Shown here: piece after piece, positions 1,393 through 30,364 of the stretch
Position numbering within the stretch: the stretch's first letter is position 1
How the letters are laid out: each line of letters opens with the position of its first letter
Source: Candidatus Saccharimonadota bacterium
Lineage (GTDB): Bacteria; Pseudomonadota; Gammaproteobacteria; Enterobacterales; Enterobacteriaceae
Assembly: GCA_041941795.1 (NCBI GenBank)
Contig: CP145872.1
Location: forward strand, 270,001-302,000
Direction: 5' to 3'
DNA length: 32,000 nt
Made by a program: the position numbers and the translations under genes
Notes under the pieces: model-generated
What the model was told of the DNA's origin: nothing
Databases searched by the model: none
The model's input: the letters and a program-made list of their open reading frames with translations, nothing else

Positions 1393-2503
1393 ATGACAAA
1401 AAATGTTTTCGAGATTGCCTCTTTAACAGAAATGATACTACAACTTTATAAACGTAGTAAGATTCTGTGGAGGAATCTTTGATTATGTCTCTACTCAAGA
1501 AAGTCTAACAAAAATTAATATTCTTTTGGCCCAAAATAAAACCTGGAAAAATATTTCATTAGTAAGTGCTTTAAATAAGCAGCGGTCTTTACTAGTAGCC
1601 AGTTTAAATGCTGTACAAGCTTTCTTCAGTGAGTTAAACGACGCTAAAACTTTACTAGAATTAGCTAACGAGGAAAATAATCTCGAAATATTACCAGTAA
1701 TATATGCTGACCTAAAAAATATAGAAGAGAGAATAAGAGAATTAGAATTTAGAAAATTTTTTAATAGTCAACAAGATCGAGAAAACTGCTATCTAGATAT
1801 ACAAGCAGGATCAGGCGGAATAGAAGCTCAAGATTGGGCTTATATGTTAAGCAGAATGTATTTACGATGGGCGGAAAAAAAGAGATTTGGTACTGAAATT
1901 ATTTCAGAATCGTTAGGAGAAAAATCAGGAATAAAATGTACAACAATTCGCGTGTCAGGAGAATATGCATTTGGATGGTTACGTACTGAAAACGGTATTC
2001 ATCGTTTAGTTCGTAAAAGCCCATTTGATTCAGGCGGAAGACGACATACTTCTTTTAGTTCTGCATTTATATATCCAGAAGTTAAAGATAATATAGAGAT
2101 CGAGTTGAATGCGCTCGATTTACGAATTGATGTATATCGAGCTTCGGGTGCAGGGGGACAACATGTCAATCGTACTGAATCTGCAGTACGCATTACACAT
2201 ATTCCTACTGGAACAGTTACACAATGTCAAAATGCTCGTTCTCAGCATAAAAATAAAGAGCAAGCTATTAAACAAATGAAAGCAAAATTATATAATCTAG
2301 AGTTAAAAAAAAGAAATGCAGATAAAAAGACGCAGGAAAAAAATAAACCGGACATTGCATGGGGAAGACAAATAAGATCTTATGTACTCGATGATTCACG
2401 TATTAAAGATTTACGTACGGGTATAGAAACTCGTAATATCCAAGCGGTTTTAAATGGAGAAATAGACTTATTTCTTGAAGAAAATTTAAAAGCTAGATTA
2501 TGA
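1393..2503 (+). CDS. prfB: Peptide chain release factor 2, made by programmed +1 ribosomal frameshift at 1480
   Basis: Frame 0 runs from ATG 1393 as [29 protein letters not shown], then hits TGA at 1480-1482. The +1 frame from 1481 ([22 protein letters not shown]...) joins the track ORF 1526..2503, since 1526-1481=45. The joined product is about 369 aa and collinear with E. coli RF2 ([34 protein letters not shown]...). It carries the SPF tripeptide ([16 protein letters not shown]) and the GGQ motif ([20 protein letters not shown]). Confidence 0.95.
1469..1483 (+). promoter_or_regulatory. prfB autoregulatory +1 frameshift cassette: internal SD-like GGAGG, 3-nt spacer, slippery CTT, in-frame TGA
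   Basis: The sequence is GGAGG(1469-1473) AAT CTT(1477-1479) TGA(1480-1482) T. E. coli has the same architecture and spacing (AGGGGG UAU CUU UGA C). Confidence 0.85.
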
Positions 2504-2512
2504 GGCATAATC

Positions 2513-4042
2513 ATGTCTAAAAAAAAACATTCATCTCTCTTTAGAGATGAGTTAAATAATGAGTTCCAAAATAGACGCAAAAAATTACATCAATTACGTA
2601 AACAGGGAATAGCATTTCCAAATGATTTTCGTCCTTCTTATCTTTCGAGTGAACTTCATTTAAAATTTGGTAATAAAAATAAGATGGATTTAAAAAAACT
2701 CAATATTGTTATTAGAGTAGCAGGACGTATTATAACCCGGCGTATTATGGGTAAATCAGCTTTTCTTACTCTCCAAGATAGAGAGGGAAAAATTCAATTA
2801 TATATCAAATATGATATTTATGATAATAATTTCTATTATAACGAATTTAAAAGTTGGGATTTAGGAGATATTATTGGTGCTCAGGGAATTTTATTTAAAA
2901 CTAACACTAATGAACTTTCCATATCTTGTACGAAAATACGTCTTTTGACGAAATCACTTCGTCCTTTACCTGATAAATTTCATCGATTAGTAGATAAAGA
3001 AACTTGTTATCGACAACGTTATCTTGATCTTATTACTAACGATCAGTCACGAGATACTTTTATTTTACGTTCCAAAATTATCTTTAATATTCGAAAATTC
3101 ATGGATAAAGAGAATTTTATAGAAGTAGAAACTCCTATAATGCAGAAAATAGCGGGAGGAGCTGGAGCACAACCATTTATTACTCATCATAATGCTCTAG
3201 ATATCAATTTATATCTTCGCATTGCACCCGAACTTTATCTTAAACGATTGGTAATAGGCGGGTTTGAAAGAATATTTGAATTAAGCCGAAATTTTCGCAA
3301 TGAGGGAGTCTCTCCACGACATCATCCTGAATTTACTATGATGGAATTATATATGGCTTATGCTGATTACAAAGATCTTATTAAAATTACTGAAAACTTA
3401 TTAAGAAACTTAACACAAAAAATATTAGGTACTTCCATAATCCAGTATGGAAAATACACCTTTGATTTCAATAAATCTTTTAATAAACTTTCTATGAAAG
3501 AATCAATATTAAAATATTCTCCCGAAATTAATCTAAATATTTTAGAAGATATTCATCTCACGAAAAAATTTGCGCAACGTTTAGGAATTAATGTAAAAAG
3601 TCATTGGGGTCATGGACGTCTTCTAACTGAAATTTTTGATATATCGGTAGAAAAACATTTAATATATCCCACTTTTATTACAGATTATCCTACTGAAGTA
3701 TCACCATTAGCACGTAGTCATGATAACTATCCCTTTCTCTGCGAAAGATTTGAATTATTTATTAATGGTTATGAGATAGGGAATGGTTTTTCAGAGTTAA
3801 ATGATCCTGAAGAACAATCTTATCGCTTTGTACAACAAAGATACAATTATCAATCCGATCATAATAATCATCACTATAATAATGATAATATCTATGATCA
3901 AGATTATATTAGAGCCTTAGAACATGGTATGCCTCCTACTGCTGGTCTGGGCATTGGAATTGATCGCCTAGTAATGATATTCACTAATAAGTTCAATATA
4001 CGAGATGTTATTCTTTTTCCTACTTTACGTCCTGAGGAATAA
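2513..4042 (+). CDS. lysS: Lysine--tRNA ligase (class II)
   Basis: The ORF is 509 aa and starts 9 nt after the prfB stop, as in the E. coli prfB-lysS operon. Class II motifs are present ([39 protein letters not shown]). Confidence 0.97.
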
Positions 4043-6462
<2,420 letters not shown>

Positions 6463-6579
6463 TCACTTCTATAACAATAGAATTATTAACAAATCCTTTT
6501 TAGGAGGATATATCACTAATTTAGTATTTCGAAAAATATGCAATAAACTTTTTACTCTAAAATTATATTTTTAGTTACA

Positions 6580-7683
6580 TTATAATTGCATTGGCATTAT
6601 TACATACATATCATCTGAATAAATCGTAAGTCTTTTAATTTGAATACTAGATTCTGAATCTCGGAGAGCGATCCTAATCTTTTCATCTTTTAAAATTTGC
6701 AATACATCTAGGAGATATCTAATATTAATAATTATACTTAACTGTTCACCTTTATAAAAAACATCTACTATTTCTTCCGCTTTTTCTTGTGCCATATTAG
6801 TAGCAGTAATTTTTAACCTATTTGGTTTAAAATCTAAACACACTCCGTGTAATCTTTCATTAGCCAGAATATAAGCACGAGATAAAGCAGATCTCAATAA
6901 AGAGGCTTCTATTAATACTATTTTATCATAATTATTTTGTAATACCGTACGATAATTAGGAAACTGTCCATCGATAATTCTAGATGTAATAATACAATTA
7001 CTGAGATATAGTCTCATATTATTTTTACTAAACTGGATTTTTAATAATTGTTCATTATTTTCTAGTAACCTTAAAATTTCGAGCACTGTCTTTCTTGGGA
7101 TAATAATTGCAGTGTAAGAAAAACTTTTACTTAAAGTGGTCTTACAAAAAGATAAACGATGTCCATCAGTAGCTACAGTACATAGTTCTTGACCATTCAC
7201 CTCTAACAAAAGACCATTAAGATAATAACGGACATCTTGGCGTGCCATAGAAAAAGCGGTTGCTTCTAGCAAATGTTTCATTATATTTTGTTGAATAGGA
7301 AACTCGATTTCATTTATAAAGTCGTCTAAATTTGGGAAATTATCTGCTGATAAAGTAGCTAAATAAAACTTACTAGTGCCTGAAGTTAACACCATTTGTT
7401 CTGGTTGGAGAGAAGCACTTATATCGCAATTAGCGGGTAAACATCTACAAATCTCTAATAATTTTCGGGCGGGGACAGTAATTAAACCTGGTTCAGATGG
7501 TTCTGTTAGAAGAATATGTGTTTTCATCTCTATTTCCAGATCAGTAGAAGTTAACCATAATGTTCCTTGACTTACTTTGAGAAGAATATTATTAATTATA
7601 GGTAATAAAGGTTTATTACTAATAGGTCTAGTAGTTTGTTGTAATGGTTTTAGTAATTGTTCACGTTTTATATTAAATTTCAT
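6580..7683 (-). CDS. dnaN: DNA polymerase III beta sliding clamp
   Basis: The ORF is 367 aa. It starts MKFNIKREQLLKPLQ and ends YVIMPMQL (E. coli ...YVVMPMRL). It is collinear throughout with E. coli DnaN. Confidence 0.97.
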   Translation of the reverse strand: MKFNIKREQLLKPLQQTTRPISNKPLLPIINNILLKVSQGTLWLTSTDLEIEMKTHILLTEPSEPGLITVPARKLLEICRCLPANCDISASLQPEQMVLTSGTSKFYLATLSADNFPNLDDFINEIEFPIQQNIMKHLLEATAFSMARQDVRYYLNGLLLEVNGQELCTVATDGHRLSFCKTTLSKSFSYTAIIIPRKTVLEILRLLENNEQLLKIQFSKNNMRLYLSNCIITSRIIDGQFPNYRTVLQNNYDKIVLIEASLLRSALSRAYILANERLHGVCLDFKPNRLKITATNMAQEKAEEIVDVFYKGEQLSIIINIRYLLDVLQILKDEKIRIALRDSESSIQIKRLTIYSDDMYVIMPMQL

Positions 7684-7856
7684 AAAATATTTTTCAAAAA
7701 TTATAATAAATAACTCATTTAGTGTGAGTTTTTTTATCCTGTAATTTTTAGCTAATTAAATATTAAATTTTATCACAGTTAATATTAAATTACATTGTTT
7801 TAATTTAAAATAATATCGTGATGTCGTCAGTTATAGTAAATTTTTTTAAAATTTTA

Positions 7857-7885
7857 TTGACTACCTTATTAAGATTAGATATTTT
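7857..7885 (+). promoter_or_regulatory. Candidate sigma70 promoter for rpmH-rnpA-yidD-yidC-mnmE (TTGACT - 17 nt - TATTTT)
   Basis: TTGACT lies at 7857-7862 and TATTTT at 7880-7885, 27 nt upstream of the rpmH ATG. Such matches arise by chance in sequence this AT-rich, so this is weak. Confidence 0.25.
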
Positions 7886-7911
7886 TATCTAAAAAAGAAG
7901 TGAATTTAATT

Positions 7912-8055
7912 ATGAAACGTACTTTTCAACCTTCAGTAATCAAGCGACATCGTAGTCATGGTTTTCGTATTAGAATGTCTACTAAAAATGGACGGAAGAT
8001 TTTTTCTCGACGTCGCGCTAAAAAAAGATCTTGTTTGAGTATTTGTAATACATAA
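7912..8055 (+). CDS. rpmH: 50S ribosomal protein L34
   Basis: This gene is not in the ORF track because it is too short. ATG 7912 to TAA 8053-8055 encodes [47 protein letters not shown]. It is near-identical in pattern to E. coli L34 ([39 protein letters not shown]...). Confidence 0.95.
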
Positions 8056-16270: not shown

Positions 16271-16346
<76 letters not shown>

Positions 16347-16445: not shown

Positions 16446-17963
16446 ATGATTTATAATCCTCATCAGTTGTTACCAGATGATATCTGGACTACAAAGCAGA
16501 TTGGAGTTCTACAATCTGAAATAGTAAAAAAAATGCATATTTCTTTATTAGAATTAATGCACCGAGCAGGACAGGCATCATTTGACTGTATTATAAATTT
16601 ATGGCCGAATTCTAGACACTGGCTAATTTTATGTGGAAATAGCTCTAATGGGCAAAAGGGTTATATTATTGCCGAGTTAGCCCGTAATGCCGGAATTACT
16701 GTCACCGTAATGGGATGTTATGGTCCCTTTTTTCATAAGAGCTGCAATAAATATCAAAAATATCAAGATGCACAATTAAAGTGGATAGAAAAAGGTGAAA
16801 GTATCTATTCGGCTCATACTCCTTTTCCAGATAAAGTTGATATTATTATAGATGCTTTACTAGGTATTGAAATGAATAATATTCCCATATTTCCATATAA
16901 CATACTTATTTCACGAGCTAATCAACATTCTGCCCCTATATTTTCAATAGATATTCCTTCGGGATTACTAGCCGACACAGGATTCACCCCTGGAGAAGTC
17001 ATTCATGCAGCACATACTATAACTTTTATAGGCATTAAGCCGGGACTTATAACAGGACAAGCACGAAAATATGTAGGAAAATTACATTATCATAGCTTAG
17101 ATACTAATGTAGTTTTGAATAAACATCATTCCTCCATATCGAGATGGGATAAGACTTGCTTAACAGAAAAATTCTTACCTCTAAAAATACCTACCTCGCA
17201 TAAAGGTCAACATGGTAAGTTACTATTAATTGGCGGAGATATAGGGACAGCTGGAGCTATTATTCTTACCGGAAAAGCGGCATTAAGATCAGGTACTGGA
17301 TTAGTTAAAATTATTACTCATAAGTTGAATATAATTCCGGTATTATCAAATTGTCCCGAATTAATGGTGCAAAAATACAGTAGGAATACCTTAGAAAAGT
17401 ACATAAAGTGGGCAAATACTATCATCATCGGTCCCGGAATAGGACAACAAAGTTGGGGAAAAAAAATCATGTTTAGAATAAAACAATCTCATCAACCCAG
17501 CTTATGGGATGCCGATGCTCTAACGTTTTTAGCTAATAATCGTAATATAAGAATGAATAGAATTATTACTCCTCATAGTGGTGAGGCGGCAAAATTGCTT
17601 AAAATGCATATTTCCGAAGTAGAAAAAGATAGATTACAAGCCGCTAAATTACTAGCTAAATATTATGGAGGGGTAGTGGTTCTCAAAGGATCAGGCACGG
17701 TTATTGCGAGTCATAGTGGTGAAGTAGCTATTGCAGATGTGGGGAATGTAGGTCTAGCCACTGGAGGGATGGGAGATATATTATCCGGAATAATAGGAAG
17801 TTTCTTAGGACAACAATTTTCTATTTATAAAGCTGCTATTTTAGGATGCATAGTACATGGGGTCGCCGCTGATATATTATCAGCATCTGGTACCAGAGGA
17901 ATGGTAGCTTCTGATTTATTACCAATAATATTTAAGTTAGTCAACTGTAATAGATCTTCTTGA
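16446..17963 (+). CDS. nnr: Bifunctional NAD(P)H-hydrate repair enzyme Nnr (YjeF: epimerase + ADP-dependent dehydratase)
   Basis: The ORF is 505 aa. It has an N-terminal YjeF_N-like half and a C-terminal carbohydrate-kinase half (HKGQHGKLLLIGG, LKGSGTVIA, GGMGDILSG). It occupies the syntenic position after tRNA-Gly. Confidence 0.9.
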   Translation: MIYNPHQLLPDDIWTTKQIGVLQSEIVKKMHISLLELMHRAGQASFDCIINLWPNSRHWLILCGNSSNGQKGYIIAELARNAGITVTVMGCYGPFFHKSCNKYQKYQDAQLKWIEKGESIYSAHTPFPDKVDIIIDALLGIEMNNIPIFPYNILISRANQHSAPIFSIDIPSGLLADTGFTPGEVIHAAHTITFIGIKPGLITGQARKYVGKLHYHSLDTNVVLNKHHSSISRWDKTCLTEKFLPLKIPTSHKGQHGKLLLIGGDIGTAGAIILTGKAALRSGTGLVKIITHKLNIIPVLSNCPELMVQKYSRNTLEKYIKWANTIIIGPGIGQQSWGKKIMFRIKQSHQPSLWDADALTFLANNRNIRMNRIITPHSGEAAKLLKMHISEVEKDRLQAAKLLAKYYGGVVVLKGSGTVIASHSGEVAIADVGNVGLATGGMGDILSGIIGSFLGQQFSIYKAAILGCIVHGVAADILSASGTRGMVASDLLPIIFKLVNCNRSS

Positions 17964-22493: not shown

Positions 22494-23486
22494 ATGCGTA
22501 AATATTTAATTATCTTATTAAGTTTAATAGCATTTTTCCTAAATCTTTCTGTGTTTACAGTAGAAGAAGGGCAGCGGGGAATTCTGTTACGTTTTGGCAA
22601 AGTACTTCGGGATAATAATCATTATCCGTTATTATTTTCTCCGGGATTGCATTTGAAAACTCCCTTTATTGACTCGGTTGAATATTTTGATTCTCGTCTT
22701 CAAACCATGGTTAATCAAGCAGATCGGTTTGTTACTAAGGAAAAGAAAGATTTAATAGTGGATTCTTATATTAAGTGGCGCATTAGCGATTTTAGCAGTT
22801 TTTATGCTACTACTGGGGGAGGAGATATTTTTCAGGCAGAAAATTTACTAAAACGAAAATTTAGTGATAGATTACGATCCGAGATAGGACGCTTGAATGT
22901 TAAAGATATTGTAACGGATTCGAGAGGAAAATTAACTTCTACCGTTCTTCAAGCATTAAATGACGGTACTAATCATCATCACAATTTGTACGCTGAAAAC
23001 AATCCTTTAGTTATGTCCAGATCGCTAAATTACATAGCTCCTACCGATAATATTCACCAGAATAGTGTAGCAATGTTAGGTATCGAAGTAATTGATGTAC
23101 GAATAAAGCAAATTAGCTTACCGTCGGAAGTATCTGAAGCTATTTATAACAGAATGCGAGCCGAACGAGAGTCCGATGCCCGTCATCACAGATCACAAGG
23201 TAAAGAACAGTCTGAAAAAATCCGTGCAGTATCAGATTATAATGTAACACGTACATTAGCTGAAGCAGAAAGAAAAGCACGTATTATTAGAGGTGAAGCA
23301 GATGCAATCGTAACAAAATTATATGGTACCTATTTTTCTCAAGATTTAGATTTTTATACATTTGTGAGAAGTTTACGTGCTTATGAAAAGGGATTTGCAA
23401 GTCAAAAAGATATGTTTTTATGGGGTAAACAGGATCCTTTTTTAGCATATATGCTGAATTCCTCATCTAATCTAAAAAATAAATAA
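22494..23486 (+). CDS. hflC: FtsH protease modulator HflC (SPFH/band-7)
   Basis: The ORF is 330 aa with an N-terminal TM segment. It reads FTVEEGQRGILLRFGKV and shows the RMRAERE...R...G motif pattern. Confidence 0.93.
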   Translation: MRKYLIILLSLIAFFLNLSVFTVEEGQRGILLRFGKVLRDNNHYPLLFSPGLHLKTPFIDSVEYFDSRLQTMVNQADRFVTKEKKDLIVDSYIKWRISDFSSFYATTGGGDIFQAENLLKRKFSDRLRSEIGRLNVKDIVTDSRGKLTSTVLQALNDGTNHHHNLYAENNPLVMSRSLNYIAPTDNIHQNSVAMLGIEVIDVRIKQISLPSEVSEAIYNRMRAERESDARHHRSQGKEQSEKIRAVSDYNVTRTLAEAERKARIIRGEADAIVTKLYGTYFSQDLDFYTFVRSLRAYEKGFASQKDMFLWGKQDPFLAYMLNSSSNLKNK

Positions 23487-23550
23487 TTTTTTTTAAGTTA
23501 TAATATAATTATATTCAATATTTACTTTTTCTAAATATGGAAGAGAAATT

Positions 23551-24060
23551 ATGAACAAAATATTATTGTTAATAACGAGCTTATTTTTCTCCACTTCCAT
23601 TTATGCACTCGGACAAATATCAGGTAATATTGGAGTCCATATGATTATAGGAAATGGTTGTGAAATTACTGGAGGAGAAGCTCTGAACTTTGGCAACTTA
23701 GATTTCGGAGAACATCCAAATATTAATAATGTAATAGATGCGACTACTAACTCAACGGCAGTAAATAATGTTACATTGGGTGTAAATTGTACAAAAGGAG
23801 TATCTTATCATCTAACTCTAAGTAATGGATTACAACCGGAAGGAACACAAAGAAGAATGAAAGGAGAAAAAAATGAATTTATAAAATATGATCTGTATAA
23901 AGATGCAACATATTCCTTACTATGGAATAGTAAGGAGATATTAAGTAACAAAGGCAATGGAGAAAATAGGCCCTTAATAATTTACGGTCGAGTACCCAAA
24001 CAAGTGGTTCCTAGTGCGGGAACATATCTAGATATGTTGACTATTACACTTACCTGGTAA
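23551..24060 (+). CDS. Spore-coat-U (SCPU) domain major pilin of a Csu-like archaic chaperone-usher pilus
   Basis: The ORF is 169 aa. A signal peptide is present (MNKILLLITSLFFSTSIYA). The SCPU pattern matches CsuA/B-type pilins: Cys pair (GNGCEITG ... GVNCTKG), LNFGNLDFG, IKYDLYKDA, and C-terminal AGTYLDMLTITLTW. An SD-like GGAAGAG lies 6 nt upstream. Confidence 0.85.
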   Translation: MNKILLLITSLFFSTSIYALGQISGNIGVHMIIGNGCEITGGEALNFGNLDFGEHPNINNVIDATTNSTAVNNVTLGVNCTKGVSYHLTLSNGLQPEGTQRRMKGEKNEFIKYDLYKDATYSLLWNSKEILSNKGNGENRPLIIYGRVPKQVVPSAGTYLDMLTITLTW

Positions 24061-24289
24061 ATCTATCTTTAAGAAGAACAAAAAGATTGCTTGCTAGAAA
24101 ATTTTTATTTAAGTGAAGAATCTTTCCTAGAAGATAACTATGTTAATAGTTTGATTACATAACTGTGGTCTCAAGAATCAAAAAGTACATAGTGTCAATA
24201 GAAAGTTCTGCATATGCATGAGATATAAATACTAATTTTCTAACTGGAGATAAAATAAAGAGCAGAATATAGGGAGAAAACCTAATTGT

Positions 24290-25087
24290 ATGGATTACAA
24301 AATAAGAGTAAGCGGATGGTGGATAGTTGTATCTCTAATAATAGGAACTATTCCAGTAGTACCAGCTGCATCATTAAATATTTGGCCAATTGATCCCATT
24401 ATTGAATGTAATGATAATACTACCTTATTATGGTTAGAAAATGTGGATAAAAATGATATTGTATTACAAATACGCATTTTTAGCTGGCAACAAAAACAGA
24501 ATCAATCCTTTCTAGAAAAACAAAATGATATAAGAGTTAGTCCACCAATAGTATTGATTGCCTCTGGACAAAAACAACTACTACGTTTAGTTAAGATAAT
24601 AGCTCCTTCTAAATATGAGGAAAAAGCATATCGTATAGTTATTGATGAAATTCCTCGCGTAAATAATTATCAAGACAATGGTGAAAAACAGAACATAGAA
24701 TTAAAATTCAAAATGCGTTATTCTATCCCATTATTTGTGTATGGTTCTAACATAAAATCTCCATCAGATATTTTACATCCTCTCAATAATAATTTGGTTC
24801 TTTCTACTCCCAAATTACATTATTTCATTCTTAATGAAAAAAATAAAAATTACTTACATATTCGTAATGAAGGAATCGTACATGCTAAACTTAGTGAAGT
24901 ATACTTAGAAGATAATAAAAATAAATATTTAGTCAGTGATGGATTACTAGGTTATGTCCTACCAGGCAATGAAATAATTGTTCCAATTTCTGACTCGTTA
25001 AGAGGAAGAAAAATATTATCTGCTCAGATCAATGATCGACCCGAAATTGAAACTATTCCCTTTTTTAATTTTGTTGAAAACAAATAA
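24290..25087 (+). CDS. Periplasmic pilus chaperone (PapD-like, CsuC-type)
   Basis: The ORF is 265 aa with an N-terminal signal/TM segment. It shows the pattern of sigma-class chaperones: LNIWPIDPII..., LWLENVDKNDIVLQIRIFSWQQ..., VSPPIVLIASGQKQLLRLV, YRIVIDEIP. It sits between the pilin and usher genes. Confidence 0.8.
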   Translation: MDYKIRVSGWWIVVSLIIGTIPVVPAASLNIWPIDPIIECNDNTTLLWLENVDKNDIVLQIRIFSWQQKQNQSFLEKQNDIRVSPPIVLIASGQKQLLRLVKIIAPSKYEEKAYRIVIDEIPRVNNYQDNGEKQNIELKFKMRYSIPLFVYGSNIKSPSDILHPLNNNLVLSTPKLHYFILNEKNKNYLHIRNEGIVHAKLSEVYLEDNKNKYLVSDGLLGYVLPGNEIIVPISDSLRGRKILSAQINDRPEIETIPFFNFVENK

Positions 25088-25121
25088 TTAGTCCAGATAT
25101 TATGACGCCACTAAAAGTGCA

Positions 25122-27596
25122 ATGCAACTAAGAATTGAGTGTTGGTTATTTTTACTCCTCTTTTTTATCCCTCGGGCGGAAGGTCAAATAAGGCCAAATA
25201 TTTTCGTTCCTAGCAGTACTCAGTTATATTTAGAACTAGTGATGAATGGCAATGCTACGCACCAAATATTCCCCGTAAAATATAAAAGTAGGCATTTTTA
25301 TATGTCAATAGACTCATTAAAAAAAATAGGATTTAATTTTGATAAGATAATACTCGGAAAAGTACACAATTTTTCTCACAATGAGATAGCTCTAGATTTA
25401 GTAAGTAATTTACTTACTAAATATGATCCAAAGATGCAAAGATTTTTTATGGATGTGCCTTATTCTTGGTGGCCAGAAAACAAAATTATGCCGATAAACT
25501 ATCCCAGTATAAGCAAAGACGAAGGTCAAAGTTCTTTCGGAGGAATATTAAACTATGATTGGTATTTCAATACCTTTCTGAAAAATACTAAAAGAGTTCA
25601 ATCTTCATTATGGTCAGAGATTAGATTATTTAATCGCATAGGTGTCTTCTCCCATACGGGAATATTACGAATCAACAGTTTATTAAATCCAAATATAAAA
25701 AAAACATCTTACATACGTTATGAAACTCAATGGAGTATGAATAGCGAACCATATATGTTGCACTATATAATAGGTGATTATACTACGGATGTTTTTACCG
25801 GATATTCTCCAGTGCGGATGGTTGGCATTAAAGTATCTCGACAATTCACTATCCATCCTGAGAAAATTACGTATTCCTTACCTAACATTAGTGGATACGC
25901 TACTATGCCTAGTCTCTTAGATGTATATATGAATAATGACAAAATAATCTCTAGACCAATTAGTCCCGGAAAATTTCAGTTGATAAATAATTTAGGATAT
26001 TTAAATGGTTATAATATGGCTACTATCCTAACATCCGATTTATTAGGGCGCTCTAAACGAATTCAAGTGCCTTGTTATGTAGATAGAAATATTCTTAATG
26101 TAGGTAGCACTGATTTTAGTCTATCATTAGGATCTTTACGACGACATTACGGACGAAAATCTTTTGATTATGATTCGGATATATCTTTAAGGGGATTTAT
26201 AAGATATGGATTAGCACCATGGATAACAGTTAATACAATCCTAGAAAGTACTAAAAATTTTTTTAATATAGGAGTAGGAGGGGATATAAAATGTTTCCTT
26301 TTAGGAATAGTAAATATTTCATGGAGTCTCAGTAGTACCACCAAAGAAAAAAGTACTCCAGTGTATTCTGTTCCTGCTGGAGTCACTCATAATATTAGAT
26401 CTATCTTAAAATTTAACATTAATAAATGGAATGACAGTAATTGGCAGTATACAGGACAACAGATAAACTTAGGGTATACCTACCAGAATACATTCTTAAA
26501 TTTAAATGCTCAATATAACTACCGAATGGGAAGTTATAGTGAGTTATTAAATTATGCGAGTCAGTCACCAAATTACTTGGTTAAGCATTTAACTCAAATT
26601 AATGGGACCATTAATTTGAGTAATTCTAGCAATATGAGTGTAAGTTTTCTGGAACATCGAGACCTAAACAAAAAAAGATTAAAAGAATTTAATATTTCAT
26701 ATAGTACTTCCTTAGGAAGAAATATTAATTTATGGACTTCAATAAATAAATATACGGGGGAAAAATCCGGCTATAAAGCAAACTTAATGTTAAGTATCCC
26801 TTTAAATAGTTTTGGAAATACATCCTTTGTATCTGAGGTAGATGAAGAGCATAATTCCTTCATAAGTCAATCATGGAATAGAAGTATTCCCTCTTATGAA
26901 GGGATAGGATGGAATGTTAATTTTTCTAAGAAAAATACTGATCATCCCTTTCATCAAGCTAATATTATTTGGAAAAATAAATATTTTTCTACTCAAGCAG
27001 GTTTAGATGAAGTTAATAATTCTCCAAATCTATGGTGGCAATTAAGTGGTGCCTTGGTTGCTATAGGAAAATATATGAATTTTTCCTCACCTATTAATGA
27101 TGGATTCGTACTGATATCAACTAATGGATATCCAAATATCCCTATTTTTTATGAAAACAGATTGATTGGAAAAACTAATAATAAGGGATATTTATTAGTT
27201 TCATCTGTACAATCCTGGTATCCTGGTACCATAGCTCTTGATCCTAAAAATATTTCACCTGGCATTAATATTCCTTCGACAATTAAAAAATTTATCCTTA
27301 AAGAACGGAGTGGTTATATAGTAAATTTTGATCTATCAAGTACTCAATCTGCTTTTTTTTCAGTGATTGATAAAGAAGGTCACTTTTTACCTCCCGGTAG
27401 TCTAGTGAGGATAATAGGTACTTCCAAGATGACTTGGTCAGGATTAGAAGGAGAAGTCTTCATTAAAGATATCAATAAGAACAAGCATAATCTACTTCTT
27501 ATTACTAGATCTGACAATAATAATACTTGTAAAGTAGTATTTGATAAACCATCAGAAGATGTAATATCAACTCCAGGATTACAACTATGCAAGTAA
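25122..27596 (+). CDS. Outer-membrane pilus usher (CsuD-type)
   Basis: The ORF is 824 aa with a signal peptide (MQLRIECWLFLLLFFIPRAEG). Its size, its Y/N/S/G-rich beta-barrel-like composition and its position after the chaperone are typical of fimbrial ushers. The assignment rests on context and composition, not on a motif search. Confidence 0.8.
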   Translation: MQLRIECWLFLLLFFIPRAEGQIRPNIFVPSSTQLYLELVMNGNATHQIFPVKYKSRHFYMSIDSLKKIGFNFDKIILGKVHNFSHNEIALDLVSNLLTKYDPKMQRFFMDVPYSWWPENKIMPINYPSISKDEGQSSFGGILNYDWYFNTFLKNTKRVQSSLWSEIRLFNRIGVFSHTGILRINSLLNPNIKKTSYIRYETQWSMNSEPYMLHYIIGDYTTDVFTGYSPVRMVGIKVSRQFTIHPEKITYSLPNISGYATMPSLLDVYMNNDKIISRPISPGKFQLINNLGYLNGYNMATILTSDLLGRSKRIQVPCYVDRNILNVGSTDFSLSLGSLRRHYGRKSFDYDSDISLRGFIRYGLAPWITVNTILESTKNFFNIGVGGDIKCFLLGIVNISWSLSSTTKEKSTPVYSVPAGVTHNIRSILKFNINKWNDSNWQYTGQQINLGYTYQNTFLNLNAQYNYRMGSYSELLNYASQSPNYLVKHLTQINGTINLSNSSNMSVSFLEHRDLNKKRLKEFNISYSTSLGRNINLWTSINKYTGEKSGYKANLMLSIPLNSFGNTSFVSEVDEEHNSFISQSWNRSIPSYEGIGWNVNFSKKNTDHPFHQANIIWKNKYFSTQAGLDEVNNSPNLWWQLSGALVAIGKYMNFSSPINDGFVLISTNGYPNIPIFYENRLIGKTNNKGYLLVSSVQSWYPGTIALDPKNISPGINIPSTIKKFILKERSGYIVNFDLSSTQSAFFSVIDKEGHFLPPGSLVRIIGTSKMTWSGLEGEVFIKDINKNKHNLLLITRSDNNNTCKVVFDKPSEDVISTPGLQLCK

Positions 27597-28555
27597 AGGA
27601 CCATAATAATTTCTATTATCCCCGTAATTATATAAAAATTTTTCCAATTATTATTGCTCTTTTCTATCTGCCTGTAACCAGAGGAGATTGTACTTTTTCT
27701 CATGGAGATGTAAGTTTAGGACCGACTAATTCCTTTAGTTTACTTCATGGATCTATCCAGTCGTCCGGAAAGTCAGGCATGGTTTGTTCAGGATTTAATG
27801 CTACATTTTTAACTCATAATACTATTAGAGCTCAGATTCTTTCTACTTTAAATAACATGAAGCTGAAAAATCAAGATACTTCAACAGAAGAAGATATTCC
27901 ATATCTAATATATCCAGATAAAAATTATCAGTATGCTTATAAAGTAGGACAAGAGATAGACTTCGATAAATTAAATTTACTGTCATTAATATTTTCCTCA
28001 AATAATAGTGAAATTCCTCTCTATATAAAAACTCATCCCAGTACTAACGTCGCTTCGGGCCTTTATGAAGACGTGATTCAAATGAAATGGGAATATTCTA
28101 TTTGTCGAGTAGGTACATTATTTCTATGTTTTTCTAATTGGAAAGGAAAAGGATTTACTACTGTCAAAGTACATGGTTTAGTAAATAAAGAATGTTTAAT
28201 AAATACAATAAATGATATTGATTTGGGTTCTACAACTTCACTAGATAAGGTTCCCCCATTAACTACTCATATCACGGTAAGCTGCACTAAAAAAGAACAT
28301 TTCAATGTTTGGTTTACAGATGGGAATTTTTCTCATGGAGGATGGAGACAAATGAGTGATGGACTAGATCATTATATCCAATATAATATTTATCATCCTG
28401 ACACCAATCTTATCTGGAATCAAAATACTAAATTGGGTTTTACAGGTTTAGGTAGTACTCAATTGATTACCTATCAAGTATCAGTTAATAATAAACAGAC
28501 CAATGTAACTGCTGGCAACTATTCCGATACTATTTCTATAGTAGTAGAGTATTAG
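27587..28555 (+). CDS. Two-domain SCPU tip subunit / putative adhesin (CsuE-like)
   Basis: The ORF is 322 aa. Its ATG overlaps the usher stop by 10 nt (ctATGcaagTAA). A hydrophobic leader is present (IKIFPIIIALFYLPVTRG). The C-terminal pilin-like half has SCPU signatures (IQYNIYHPDTNLIW, VTAGNYSDTISIVVEY). The N-terminal half (ASGLYEDVIQMKWEY) is more divergent. Confidence 0.65.
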   Translation: MQVKDHNNFYYPRNYIKIFPIIIALFYLPVTRGDCTFSHGDVSLGPTNSFSLLHGSIQSSGKSGMVCSGFNATFLTHNTIRAQILSTLNNMKLKNQDTSTEEDIPYLIYPDKNYQYAYKVGQEIDFDKLNLLSLIFSSNNSEIPLYIKTHPSTNVASGLYEDVIQMKWEYSICRVGTLFLCFSNWKGKGFTTVKVHGLVNKECLINTINDIDLGSTTSLDKVPPLTTHITVSCTKKEHFNVWFTDGNFSHGGWRQMSDGLDHYIQYNIYHPDTNLIWNQNTKLGFTGLGSTQLITYQVSVNNKQTNVTAGNYSDTISIVVEY

Positions 28556-28590
28556 CTTGAATCTACAATAGGATGAATACCTTTTTTAAG

Positions 28591-29597
28591 ATGTCAACAC
28601 ATTAGATACAATGAAAAGAAAATTCTTTGACTAACTCCACACGGTACCACTCTCATTCTTCAGGATAGATGCAGGATGCACGAATTTTTAAGAAAAAAAA
28701 ACTTAGGAACCAAAAAGCAGATGTTACATCATATTTTATAATGATTGCGAGCTGCCGGTAAAAGAGATCGATGCAGTCTCTTAAACGAGAAATTGAAGCA
28801 GGATATTAACCTAAAATTAATAATGATGATATTATATTTACTTCTGCTGTGATAGAGAACGAGGTTTTCACTAATATAATTTTTACACCTAATAAGGGCT
28901 TTGCACATGCCTATAGATTGAAGAGTAAATTTAAATTTTTTTAATTAAAAAAGTATGTAATAGTATAATTACTCAGATGAGCTATTTTAATCAAGACAGA
29001 ATATCTATTTCCGATAGGGTTGGTTATTTTCATACTATCTTGATGATAAATATATAGATACTAAATCTTATACGGATGTAATAAAGCGCGTACAAATTTT
29101 CTTTTCTTGTTTACTTAAAACATTCGGTCACACTATAAATTTAATCAGGACATTACCTTTTTGCTAGCTCAATCCGGATGTTTATTATCCCAAGTAAGAA
29201 CAGTAAAAATACTGAAGATCTAATTGGGATATTAATCCATGGGATTTTAATCGCTTAAAGCGACCTACAAGGTATGGAAGTTATCATTATATTTTAATCG
29301 TCCCAGAAAATGCTCGATCTAAAACAAATGTGGGAGGAAGACATGTATGTGAAGCCAGCGATATTATTTTTACGCTAGATATCTAGGACCAATATTTTTC
29401 CCGAACTTTACCTCAACTTAATAAACTTAAAGGAGGATATTATTTAGTATTTCATGATCACGGATCATACGAATCTTAAATATCATCAAATTATAATAAC
29501 CTTTTTATTCCCTGAAGTTTTATTAGATAATGGATACCTACGACCCATAACGACAAATAATAGAGTAATTATAAAGGGAGAATCATTTCTATAAATA
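28591..29597 (+). pseudogene. lysA: Diaminopimelate decarboxylase pseudogene (multiple stops, frameshifts, internal deletion of roughly 80-90 codons)
   Basis: No ORF of 60 aa or more exists here, but stop-interrupted frames are collinear with E. coli LysA. SLKREIEAGY*PKINNDDIIFTSAVIENE matches SLGEIERALAAGYNPQTHPDDIVFTADVIDQA. FLLAQSGCLLSQVRTVK matches FLVAQSGVLITQVRSVK. DFNRLKRPTRYGSYHYI matches GFNDLMRPAMYGSYHHI. VGGRHVCEASDIIFT matches VAGPLCESGDVFT. LKGGYYLVFHDHGSYES*ISSNYNNLFIP*SF matches KAGDYLVLHDTGAYGASMSSNYNSRPLLPEVLF. Examples of in-frame stops are TAA 28807 and TAG 29384. At least two frame changes occur. The end coordinate is approximate. The relic is convergent with ygdQ, matching the E. 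coli mutH-ygdQ...lysA neighbourhood. Confidence 0.8.
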
Positions 29598-29608
29598 GAG
29601 AAATGATT
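29581..29608. terminator. Hairpin (10-bp stem AATCATTTCT/AGAAATGATT, 8-nt loop) between convergent lysA relic and ygdQ; possible terminator
   Basis: Read directly. It lies 31 nt downstream of the ygdQ stop on the minus strand. A second small hairpin, GAAAC-TAA-GTTTC, sits at 29610-29622. No clean U-tract follows, so the terminator role is uncertain. Confidence 0.3.
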
Positions 29609-29638
29609 AGAAACTAAGTTTCATTTACAGTCCTGCTA

Positions 29639-30364
29639 TTATTGAACATAATTTTTTCTATATAAAAAATTTAAACCTTCTACTAATAGAGCAAAACATA
29701 AAGATGCATATAGATATCCTCTAGGAATATGTATGAAAATTCCTTCTAGCATAAGAATTATTCCTAATAAACCTATAAAGGCTAAGGTTAATATTTTGAG
29801 AAAAATATTATAGTGCAGAAATTTAGCTATTTTTCTAGAAAAAAAGAACAATATAATGGCTGAAAAAATTAAGGCAATAAACATTACTGTCTGATTGGTA
29901 GAAATACTGACTGCAGTTAGTACTGAATCCATGCTAAAAAGAATATCTAACACAATAATCTCTCCCACTACTTTGCCAAATGAAAAACATTCTTTTTTTC
30001 TAGCAAACAAGCCTGAGGTATTAAAATTTAATATAATTGTATTATGGAGTTCTTTCAAAGATTTACATAATAAAAATATTCCTCCCAGTAAAAAAATTAA
30101 TTCCCGAAATGAAAAATTATGAAAGAATATAGTAAATATTGGGTTAGTAAATTTCAACATCCAACTGGCAATACTTAATAAGATAATACGTATTACCAGT
30201 GATACTCCTAACCCAAACATTAAAGCCGGATTTTGTTGATGACTAGGAAGATGAGAGATTTGCAAAGATATTAAAAGAATATTGTCCATACCTAGGATCA
30301 CTTCTACACTCATTAAAGTGAGTAATGATATCCATGTACTTGGAACTAGTATCCATGTAAACAT
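29639..30364 (-). CDS. ygdQ: TerC-family integral membrane protein (YgdQ-like, UPF0053)
   Basis: The ORF is 241 aa and polytopic. It is collinear with E. coli YgdQ: VEVILGMDNILLISL versus LEIVLGIDNIIFLSL, LKFTNPIFTIF versus TRLTNPLFTIF, and LDILFSMDSVLTAV versus LDIIFSLDSVITAV. It lies directly downstream of mutH, as in E. coli. Confidence 0.88.
   Translation of the reverse strand: MFTWILVPSTWISLLTLMSVEVILGMDNILLISLQISHLPSHQQNPALMFGLGVSLVIRIILLSIASWMLKFTNPIFTIFFHNFSFRELIFLLGGIFLLCKSLKELHNTIILNFNTSGLFARKKECFSFGKVVGEIIVLDILFSMDSVLTAVSISTNQTVMFIALIFSAIILFFFSRKIAKFLHYNIFLKILTLAFIGLLGIILMLEGIFIHIPRGYLYASLCFALLVEGLNFLYRKNYVQ

Follow-up and report, generated by a model that had tools for sequence, protein, structure and literature searches.

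Overall structure of the pilus locus

The window analysed here is a 32,000-nt stretch of DNA (assembly GCA_041941795.1, contig CP145872.1, positions 270,001 to 302,000, forward strand), and its positions are subsequently counted from its first letter. It contains an archaic chaperone-usher pilus operon at positions 23551-28555. The operon is formed from four open reading frames (ORFs), all on the + strand, that encode a pilin, a periplasmic chaperone, an outer-membrane usher and a tip adhesin. The original prediction, made from the letters of the window, had described four co-oriented ORFs of these sizes with a 10-nt overlap between the usher and tip genes, and the ORF check recovered them at exactly the predicted coordinates. 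The features of the locus are as follows.

23487..23550, +, spacer between hflC and the pilin gene, with a candidate promoter and a Shine-Dalgarno-like motif
23551..24060, +, major pilin p1 (CsuA/B / CupE1 orthologue), 169 aa; Pfam SCPU and solved-structure matches
24061..24289, +, pilin-chaperone spacer of 229 bp, where relatives have minor pilin genes
24290..25087, +, periplasmic chaperone (CsuC orthologue), 265 aa; PapD_N and CsuC matches
25122..27596, +, outer-membrane usher (CsuD / CupE5 orthologue), 824 aa; Pfam Usher, AlphaFold2 (AF2) model and Foldseek
27587..28555, +, two-domain tip adhesin (CsuE / CupE6 orthologue), 322 aa; SCPU and CsuE matches
28768..29549, +, lysA pseudogene remnants, outside the pilus operon; tblastn, several frames

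The start of the tip gene lies within the end of the usher gene, and this 10-nt overlap suggests that the two genes may be translationally coupled. The spacer ahead of the pilin gene contains a candidate promoter, with TATAAT as its putative -10 box (23499-23504), 46 nt upstream of the pilin start. This box and the next 20 nt vary little or not at all among four strains, of which the divergent CP145873 strain is one. A Shine-Dalgarno-like GGAAGAG follows at 23539-23545, and similar motifs are found ahead of the chaperone and tip genes. The box and these motifs are compatible with expression and do not prove it. A promoter consensus scan of positions 23300-29700 returned 40 promoter-like sites against 37.6 expected, which is uninformative at 31% GC, and the one terminator-like site that a scan of the same region gave lies on the wrong strand. 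The window has no evident two-component regulator.

The GC content is 0.29-0.32 in the operon and in its flanks alike. No integrase or insertion sequence (IS) was found in the window, all the other ORFs tested being core genes; both points had been read from the composition and gene content at the outset and they hold.

Domain structure and class of the four proteins

Above the Pfam gathering cut-offs, the pilin and the tip protein match SCPU (PF05229; E 6e-30 for the pilin and, over two stretches, E 9e-33 for the tip), the chaperone matches PapD_N (PF00345; E 6e-15) and the usher matches the Usher family (PF00577; E 1e-27). The Fimbrial profile (PF00419) gave no match at E<=0.1 for either pilin or tip, SCPU being the only family recovered for these two proteins. 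Classical (Fim/Pap-type) fimbriae were rejected as an identity for the locus, given the missing PF00419 match and NCBIfam classical chaperone/usher models that matched only far below their cut-offs. In the alignments the ends of the N-terminal leaders, which were read by eye, match the mature N-termini of CupE1, CsuC and CsuE.

Among solved structures the pilin is closest to CupE1 (8CIO_A, E 3.8e-21) and also matches CsuA/B (7ZL4, E 2.8e-7), both alignments beginning at its mature N-terminus. Its features include a signal peptide, the donor strand GQISGNIGVHMIIG, two paired cysteines (Cys37 and Cys80) and a Trp at the C-terminus, and the donor strand and the two cysteines are conserved in eight strains. 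The chaperone aligns with CsuC (5D6H_A, E 9e-36) over residues 29-236, which spans both domains. The hallmarks of archaic chaperones are an invariant Pro59 and the carboxylate anchor, formed by Arg89 in domain 1 and Tyr196/Arg174 in domain 2 (PMC4654587). P59, R89, S117, Y196 and the G1 donor residues are kept in all eight Dasytiphilus chaperones, while R174 is replaced in all eight by Lys, a conservative change.

A sequence search with the usher against solved structures gave no match and therefore a comparison of folds was needed. The AF2 model of the usher, with a predicted local distance difference test (pLDDT) score of 72, aligns by Foldseek with the full length of FimD (3RFZ_B, E 4.7e-40, 837 columns), and PapC aligns too. 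In the model the usher appears full length, with a predicted N-terminal domain, a barrel with plug and C-terminal domains. Near its C-terminus the usher has a cysteine pair, Cys803/Cys823, that does not vary among 11 homologues. Residues 410-441 (window 26349-26444) have very low model confidence (pLDDT ~31), and the ushers of the Listrus clade exceed those from other clades by ~35 aa in length; this segment may be a lineage-specific loop insertion.

For the tip protein the sole sequence match to a solved structure is CsuE (6FJY_B, E 7e-10), over residues 40-322 and so over both domains. The structure prediction that had been proposed as a check of this protein gave a model of pLDDT 81, for which CsuE is again the top Foldseek match (E 2.9e-18), with two domains. 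The tip contains six invariant cysteines and no donor strand. Three of its segments align with the finger 1 and finger 2 motifs of CsuE: FNATFLT (70-76), LNLLSLIFS (129-137) and VGTLFLCFS (174-182), the last of which is bracketed by the invariant Cys173 and Cys181. All three are hydrophobic and conserved, yet they lie in stretches of lower model confidence and their exposure as loops is only putative. Finger 3, which is specific to Acinetobacter, is absent. The function of the finger loops at the distal end of the CsuE tip domain has been described previously (PMC6003481).

The locus is an archaic (sigma) Csu/CupE-type chaperone-usher operon, because the best relatives of its proteins among solved structures are CsuE, CupE1 with CsuA/B, and CsuC, and because the predicted fold of the tip is best matched by CsuE. 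The Csu-like class assigned at first is thereby borne out by profiles and structures.

The host organism

The nearest relatives of the usher are proteins of Candidatus Dasytiphilus stammeri (87, 86, 85 and 60% identity), the next best being only ~31% identical, and the exact protein is present in two Logan assemblies. The loci with 85-87% usher identity are those of the Listrus sp. 06 and Listrus sp. 00 strains. We infer from these identities that the window comes from a further Listrus-clade strain of Ca. Dasytiphilus stammeri. This organism lives as an intracellular symbiont in the bacteriomes of Dasytinae beetles and has a genome of 437-601 kb with a GC content of 28-34% (PMC11191362). Tyrosine is its conserved contribution to the host, and several strains are without peptidoglycan synthesis (Wierz et al. 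2024, PMC11191362). The eroding, symbiont-type genome of the original prediction is in fact the severely eroded genome of an obligate symbiont.

Conservation, inheritance and selection

The locus was compared in the window and eight further strains, which together make nine strains in three clades. All nine carry the operon in the same place, between hflC and lysA/terC-mutH, and in the same orientation. None has a stop or a frameshift in any pilus ORF, at divergences that reach a synonymous rate (dS) above 1. If the genes were neutral, ~41, 142 and 311 nonsense changes would be expected at three depths of divergence, the first value referring to 4,740 coding bases in the closest pair (window and Listrus sp. 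00); none was observed.

The ratio of non-synonymous to synonymous rates (dN/dS) was calculated by the Nei-Gojobori method for close pairs only, in which dS is unsaturated (0.10-0.33). The values for the four pilus genes and five flanking genes are as follows.

pilin: 0.12-0.54
tip: 0.19-0.39
usher: 0.35-0.45
chaperone: 0.41-0.69
mutL (flank): 0.44-0.48
miaA (flank): 0.20-0.39
hflC (flank): 0.19-0.31
terC (flank): 0.34-0.57
mutH (flank): 0.17-0.43

In three phylogenetically independent pairs the ratio is 0.11-0.54 and significantly below 1 for all four pilus genes (Fisher p 3e-2 to 4e-13). Within the Listrus clade the pilin is the most constrained of the four (0.12-0.22), and both domains of the tip are constrained, with 0.15-0.46 for the N-terminal domain. 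These values support purifying selection on the operon, similar to that on the flanking core genes. The selection that had been argued from intact reading frames in one genome is therefore found across nine strains without frameshifts and in three independent pairs with ratios significantly below 1.

Two other genes of the same clade have decayed over the same period. The nnr (yjeF) gene is intact in the window (16446-17963). Listrus sp. 00 has a frameshifted copy and Listrus sp. 06 a heavily eroded one (2035-3050 in locus L005 and 2262-2863 in L006), and in the remaining strains nnr is undetectable. In the Listrus clade lysA is a pseudogene or deleted. The two neighbours serve as an internal control, which shows that genes no longer needed decay within this time span. 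The loss of nnr is thus an ongoing one, close to a conserved operon. A suspected hflK pseudogene, at places where no gene is listed, was rejected, the tblastn matches being single-frame and full-length, as in an intact gene.

At every depth of divergence the dS of the pilus genes follows that of the flanks, and the operon has therefore been inherited vertically. Recent horizontal acquisition is rejected by this agreement, by the flank-like composition and by the identical locus in three clades. The operon is a long-term resident, as was first proposed. Across clades the pilin and tip are 50-58% identical and the usher and chaperone 36-42%; this better conservation of the fibre subunits suggests that the fibre itself, and not just the pore, is the selected product.

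Loss of minor pilins

The closest free-living relatives (Yersinia, Serratia, Edaphovirga, Chimaeribacter and Budvicia) have three pilin genes followed by the chaperone, usher and tip genes. Among 78 non-Dasytiphilus relatives the common layouts have four pilins (37 loci), three (28) or two (4), in a range of 2-5. None of the 78 has a single pilin except for one locus on a contig that breaks off before the region upstream of the chaperone gene is complete. The minor pilins that stand between pilin and chaperone in the six-gene Csu/CupE architecture are not present in the window, the pilin of which best matches the first of the three Yersiniaceae pilins.

Other Dasytiphilus strains have intermediate layouts. 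The two strains with ~590 kb genomes (L090 and L091) have five genes, the second pilin being orthologous to the second Yersiniaceae pilin (6257-6727 in L090, 6216-6629 in L091). The two with ~456 kb genomes (L088 and L089) also have five, and here the second pilin (6296-6862 in both) is orthologous to the third Yersiniaceae pilin. The Listrus-type strains, including the window, have the first (major) pilin only. As sister clades keep different minor pilins, the comparison indicates that these were lost independently among the Dasytiphilus clades. In L091 the minor pilin, of 137 aa, no longer has a signal peptide and looks to be on its way to becoming a pseudogene. The layout that had been described as minimal is so indeed and, on this comparison of gene orders, is a derived minimum reached by gene loss.

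No remnant of a minor pilin was detected by tblastn in the 229-bp spacer between the pilin and chaperone genes (E>1). The spacer diverges at an approximately neutral rate among the Listrus strains and is 53 bp long in the CP145873 strain, and it is most likely the leftover of the deletion. A regulatory or attenuator element in the spacer was considered and dropped, since conservation there does not exceed neutral and the sequence is absent in CP145873.

The remaining strains are known from the numbering of genes in the published table, on which the following statements about Danacea, Dasytes lineellus, Dasytastes bicolor and Dasytes niger are based. In D. bicolor (genes 36-38) and D. niger (199-201) three gene numbers separate the chaperone and hflC (supplementary file 2 of PMC11191362), and these symbionts may still have the three ancestral pilins and a full six-gene operon.

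The closest free-living homologues of the operon are found in Yersiniaceae/Budviciaceae (L008, L010, L021, L025 and L027), not in Erwiniaceae, Izhakiella being just 29% identical. The published phylogeny places Dasytiphilus with Ishikawaella, Buchnera and Blochmannia. The affinity to Yersiniaceae/Budviciaceae may be a clue to the free-living ancestry of the symbiont, or may be a long-branch effect. The locus of 'Pseudomonas lundensis' strain I31 (L012) is almost identical in ORF coordinates and scores to that of Serratia quinivorans (L010), which suggests a mislabelled or contaminated assembly or a very recent transfer.

Loss of the operon and the accessory machinery

In both Danacea nigritarsis strains the published table numbers hflK, hflC, terC and mutH consecutively, and in D. 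lineellus it so numbers hflK, hflC, lysA, terC and mutH. These are clean deletions of the whole operon, at least two of them independent. The operon is not indispensable, because it has been cleanly deleted in these symbionts. Listrus sp. 07 seems to lack the operon as well, probably through an artefact, because this assembly is a draft of 90 contigs with coverage <10x.

The genes for export and outer-membrane insertion, secY, lepB and bamA, are listed for all 20 strains of the table. According to supplementary file 2 of PMC11191362, the only strains without dsbA and surA are the two of Danacea nigritarsis, from which the operon has gone as well, and this joint loss suggests that the pilus is part of what keeps the two genes in the other strains.

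Comparison with known systems

The best studied relative is the Csu system of Acinetobacter baumannii (csuA/B-A-B-C-D-E). The window shares with it the order of pilin(s), chaperone, usher and tip, a CsuC-homologous chaperone with the archaic carboxylate anchor, a tip homologous to CsuE over both domains with the same predicted fold, and a CsuA/B-homologous pilin with donor strand and disulfide; segments of the tip align with the hydrophobic finger 1 and 2 motifs and are putative finger loops. Unlike Csu, the window has no CsuA/CsuB minor subunits, and A. baumannii needs these for its Csu pili to be functional (PMC6003481). The tip differs from CsuE in having no finger 3 and a putative second finger in the form of a short loop closed by two invariant cysteines, and the chaperone differs from CsuC in the Lys that replaces R174 of the anchor. 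The organism also differs, being an obligate endosymbiont with a ~0.5 Mb genome.

The CupE system of Pseudomonas aeruginosa (cupE1-6) similarly has overlapping usher and tip genes (cupE5/cupE6) and a conserved pilin disulfide (PMC10104325). It has two minor pilins, CupE2 and CupE3, the role of which is stated in PMC10104325 to be unknown, and it is controlled by PprAB; the window contains neither the minor pilins nor PprAB. The six-gene SCPU operons of Yersiniaceae/Budviciaceae (Yersinia pestis, Serratia, Edaphovirga, Chimaeribacter and Budvicia) have the same gene order and, among free-living bacteria, contain the closest homologues of all four proteins, with usher identities of 31-35% and phmmer E-values down to 4e-89 for the tip. 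They differ from the window in their three pilins as against one, in a large sequence divergence and in a very different composition.

Two surface organelles of other mutualists may be compared by functional analogy only. The Mad fimbriae of Photorhabdus serve colonisation of the nematode, and the flagella of Wigglesworthia serve passage to the milk gland. They would resemble the present pilus as surface organelles for colonisation or transmission by a mutualist. As machines, the classical chaperone-usher system of Photorhabdus and the flagellum of Wigglesworthia are different, and so are the hosts.

Proposed assembly and role

We consider it on balance probable that the locus is a working, stripped-down archaic (Csu/CupE-type) pilus operon that serves attachment during transmission or colonisation. 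The comparisons show that the genes are intact, belong to the expected families, have been inherited vertically under purifying selection and have lost subunits step by step; expression, assembly and attachment are predicted. From what is known of the family, the four proteins would cross the inner membrane via Sec and be cleaved by LepB, and DsbA would make the disulfides of the pilin and the tip protein. The CsuC-like chaperone would then cap the subunits by donor-strand complementation, with the C-terminal carboxylate held by Arg/Tyr/Lys. The usher, once inserted by BamA, would accept the chaperone-tip complex first and then polymerise the single pilin by donor-strand exchange. The product would be a thin fibre with a CsuE-like tip that bears hydrophobic finger loops. 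With both ancestral minor pilins lost, this fibre would consist of the tip and the major pilin only.

The life cycle of the symbiont may offer a place for such a fibre. The female bacteriome is connected to the gut, the larvae rest in the opened egg, and the symbiont has never been observed in the ovaries and once in the gut (Wierz et al. 2024, PMC11191362). The same authors independently proposed, as a hypothesis, an extracellular transmission via the gut and the egg surface, and such a route would on their hypothesis be unique for a bacteriome symbiont. The fibre would be made outside the bacteriocytes, on the way from the gut-connected bacteriome of the female to the egg surface and on to the larval gut, and it would attach cells to each other or to host surfaces that are hydrophobic or of variable structure (the chorion, the cuticle-lined gut, epithelium). 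An adhesive organelle under selection therefore fits the extracellular transmission proposed in PMC11191362 and makes that proposal testable. A host-interface role, as the original prediction suggested, is thus what we infer. The fuller proposition is that the pilus is a colonisation organelle that carries a 0.44-0.6 Mb nutritional endosymbiont through the extracellular leg of its transmission (egg surface, larval gut, bacteriome), and that the series of six, five and four genes shows CsuA/CsuB-type subunits to be dispensable for the selected function; this is put forward tentatively, as a plausible idea that may well prove wrong.

Several observations weigh against the attachment pilus. Deletion of csuA or csuB in A. 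baumannii leaves few and abnormal fibres and no biofilm (PMC6003481), and therefore a pilus without both minor subunits might be impaired. The clean deletions in Danacea and D. lineellus mean that transmission is possible without the operon, unless those hosts differ. No strain has dsbB listed in the published gene table, and the chaperone, with a dN/dS of 0.41-0.69, stands at the upper end of the values. The symbiont spends most of its life cycle inside cells of the bacteriomes (PMC11191362), where a pilus has no obvious use, and the transmission route is itself a hypothesis of that study.

The fibres might instead bind the symbiont cells together or cover them, as a protective coat during the exposed egg phase. 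Archaic pili stack into a cohesive matrix, as in Csu/CupE biofilm matrices, and in Myxococcus a chaperone-usher system assembles an SCPU spore coat. The main part of Csu and CupE pili is in biofilm and cohesion (PMC12996565, PMC10104325). The strong constraint on the major pilin in the Listrus clade would agree with a coat, and an outer protein layer could matter outside the host in those strains that have lost peptidoglycan synthesis. The tip is as constrained as the pilin, its N-terminal receptor domain included, which is unexpected if only contacts between fibres matter, and no aggregates or coats have been reported. Cohesion as the function is on these grounds rather unlikely; it and attachment are not mutually exclusive.

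More improbable still is a use within the host cell, in which the pilus would tether the symbiont to the symbiosomal membrane, which is of host origin, or else usher and chaperone would be repurposed as an export route or pore. Symbionts with tiny genomes do retain parts of surface machines for other uses, as Buchnera retains flagellar basal bodies, and the long residence in bacteriomes (PMC11191362) would suit such a use. It is opposed by the retention of all four components, not of the usher alone, by the better conservation of the pilin and tip than of the usher and chaperone, and by the retained donor strand, disulfide cysteines and putative hydrophobic tip loops, a pattern that fits a complete fibre rather than a bare channel. 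That the operon is a relic, not yet decayed and with no present function, is close to excluded. The outright losses in at least two lineages, the continuing loss of minor pilins and the second pilin of L091, already without its signal peptide, would be in keeping with decay. They are outweighed by the open frames of nine strains at dS above 1, where the expected nonsense changes are absent, by ratios significantly below 1 in three independent pairs, like those of core genes, and by the decay of the adjacent lysA and nnr over the same period.

In obligate bacteriome symbionts with ~0.5 Mb genomes one would expect the surface adhesins to have been lost, and here 4.7 kb, ~1% of the genome, has been kept open by purifying selection. 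If the attachment pilus is real it is, to our knowledge, the first adhesive chaperone-usher organelle shown to be selectively maintained in so small a genome. The pilus gives the transmission hypothesis of Wierz et al. 2024 a molecular handle, and the clade-specific losses of minor pilins form a natural deletion series that bears on the role of CsuA/CsuB (CupE2/CupE3). The four genes of the window, for one pilin, a chaperone, an usher and a tip protein, define a minimal archaic system. The main text of PMC11191362 makes no mention of a pilus, fimbria, usher or adhesin; the genes are already public in its supplementary orthologue table, where tip, usher and chaperone appear under the KEGG names cupE/fimD/fimC without comment or discussion. 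Literature searches for chaperone-usher pili in bacteriome endosymbionts gave nothing relevant, which is weak evidence of absence as their coverage was partial.

Genomic context

The core genes of the window are ygfZ, prfB, lysS, gyrB, dnaN, rnpA, yidD, yidC, mnmE, xseB, ispA, epmB, efp, epmA, orn, nnr, mutL, miaA, hflK, hflC, a terC-family gene and mutH. The losses of dnaA, recF, hfq, hflX, tsaE, amiB and lysA that had been noted from the sequence agree with the short spacers and remnants found at these sites. Deletion of dnaA and recF has left gaps of 126 bp between gyrB and dnaN (6454-6579) and 228 bp between dnaN and rpmH (7684-7911), the latter gene lying at 7912-8055; the gene for the replication initiator is thus missing from its customary site beside dnaN. 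Judged from spacer length, tsaE and amiB are gone from the 159-bp gap between nnr and mutL, and hfq and hflX from the ~380-bp gap between miaA and hflK.

To the right of the operon lysA is found as multi-frame pieces (28768-29549; tblastn E 1.6e-18 with the intact Dasytiphilus LysA of L090/L091 as query). The gene is intact at the same site in these two ~590 kb strains, and smaller remnants are seen in the Listrus strains L005, L006 and L087. The remnants mark lysA as the ancestral right-hand neighbour of the operon.

The sole RNA gene detected in the window with Rfam is a tRNA-Gly(GCC) at 16271-16346, between orn and nnr. The programmed +1 frameshift of prfB has been kept (window 1394-1530): a short ORF from the ATG at 1394 enters GGAGG AAT CTT TGA T (~1470-1484), and the frame of release factor 2 (RF2) goes on in +1, in the ORF at 1526-2503.

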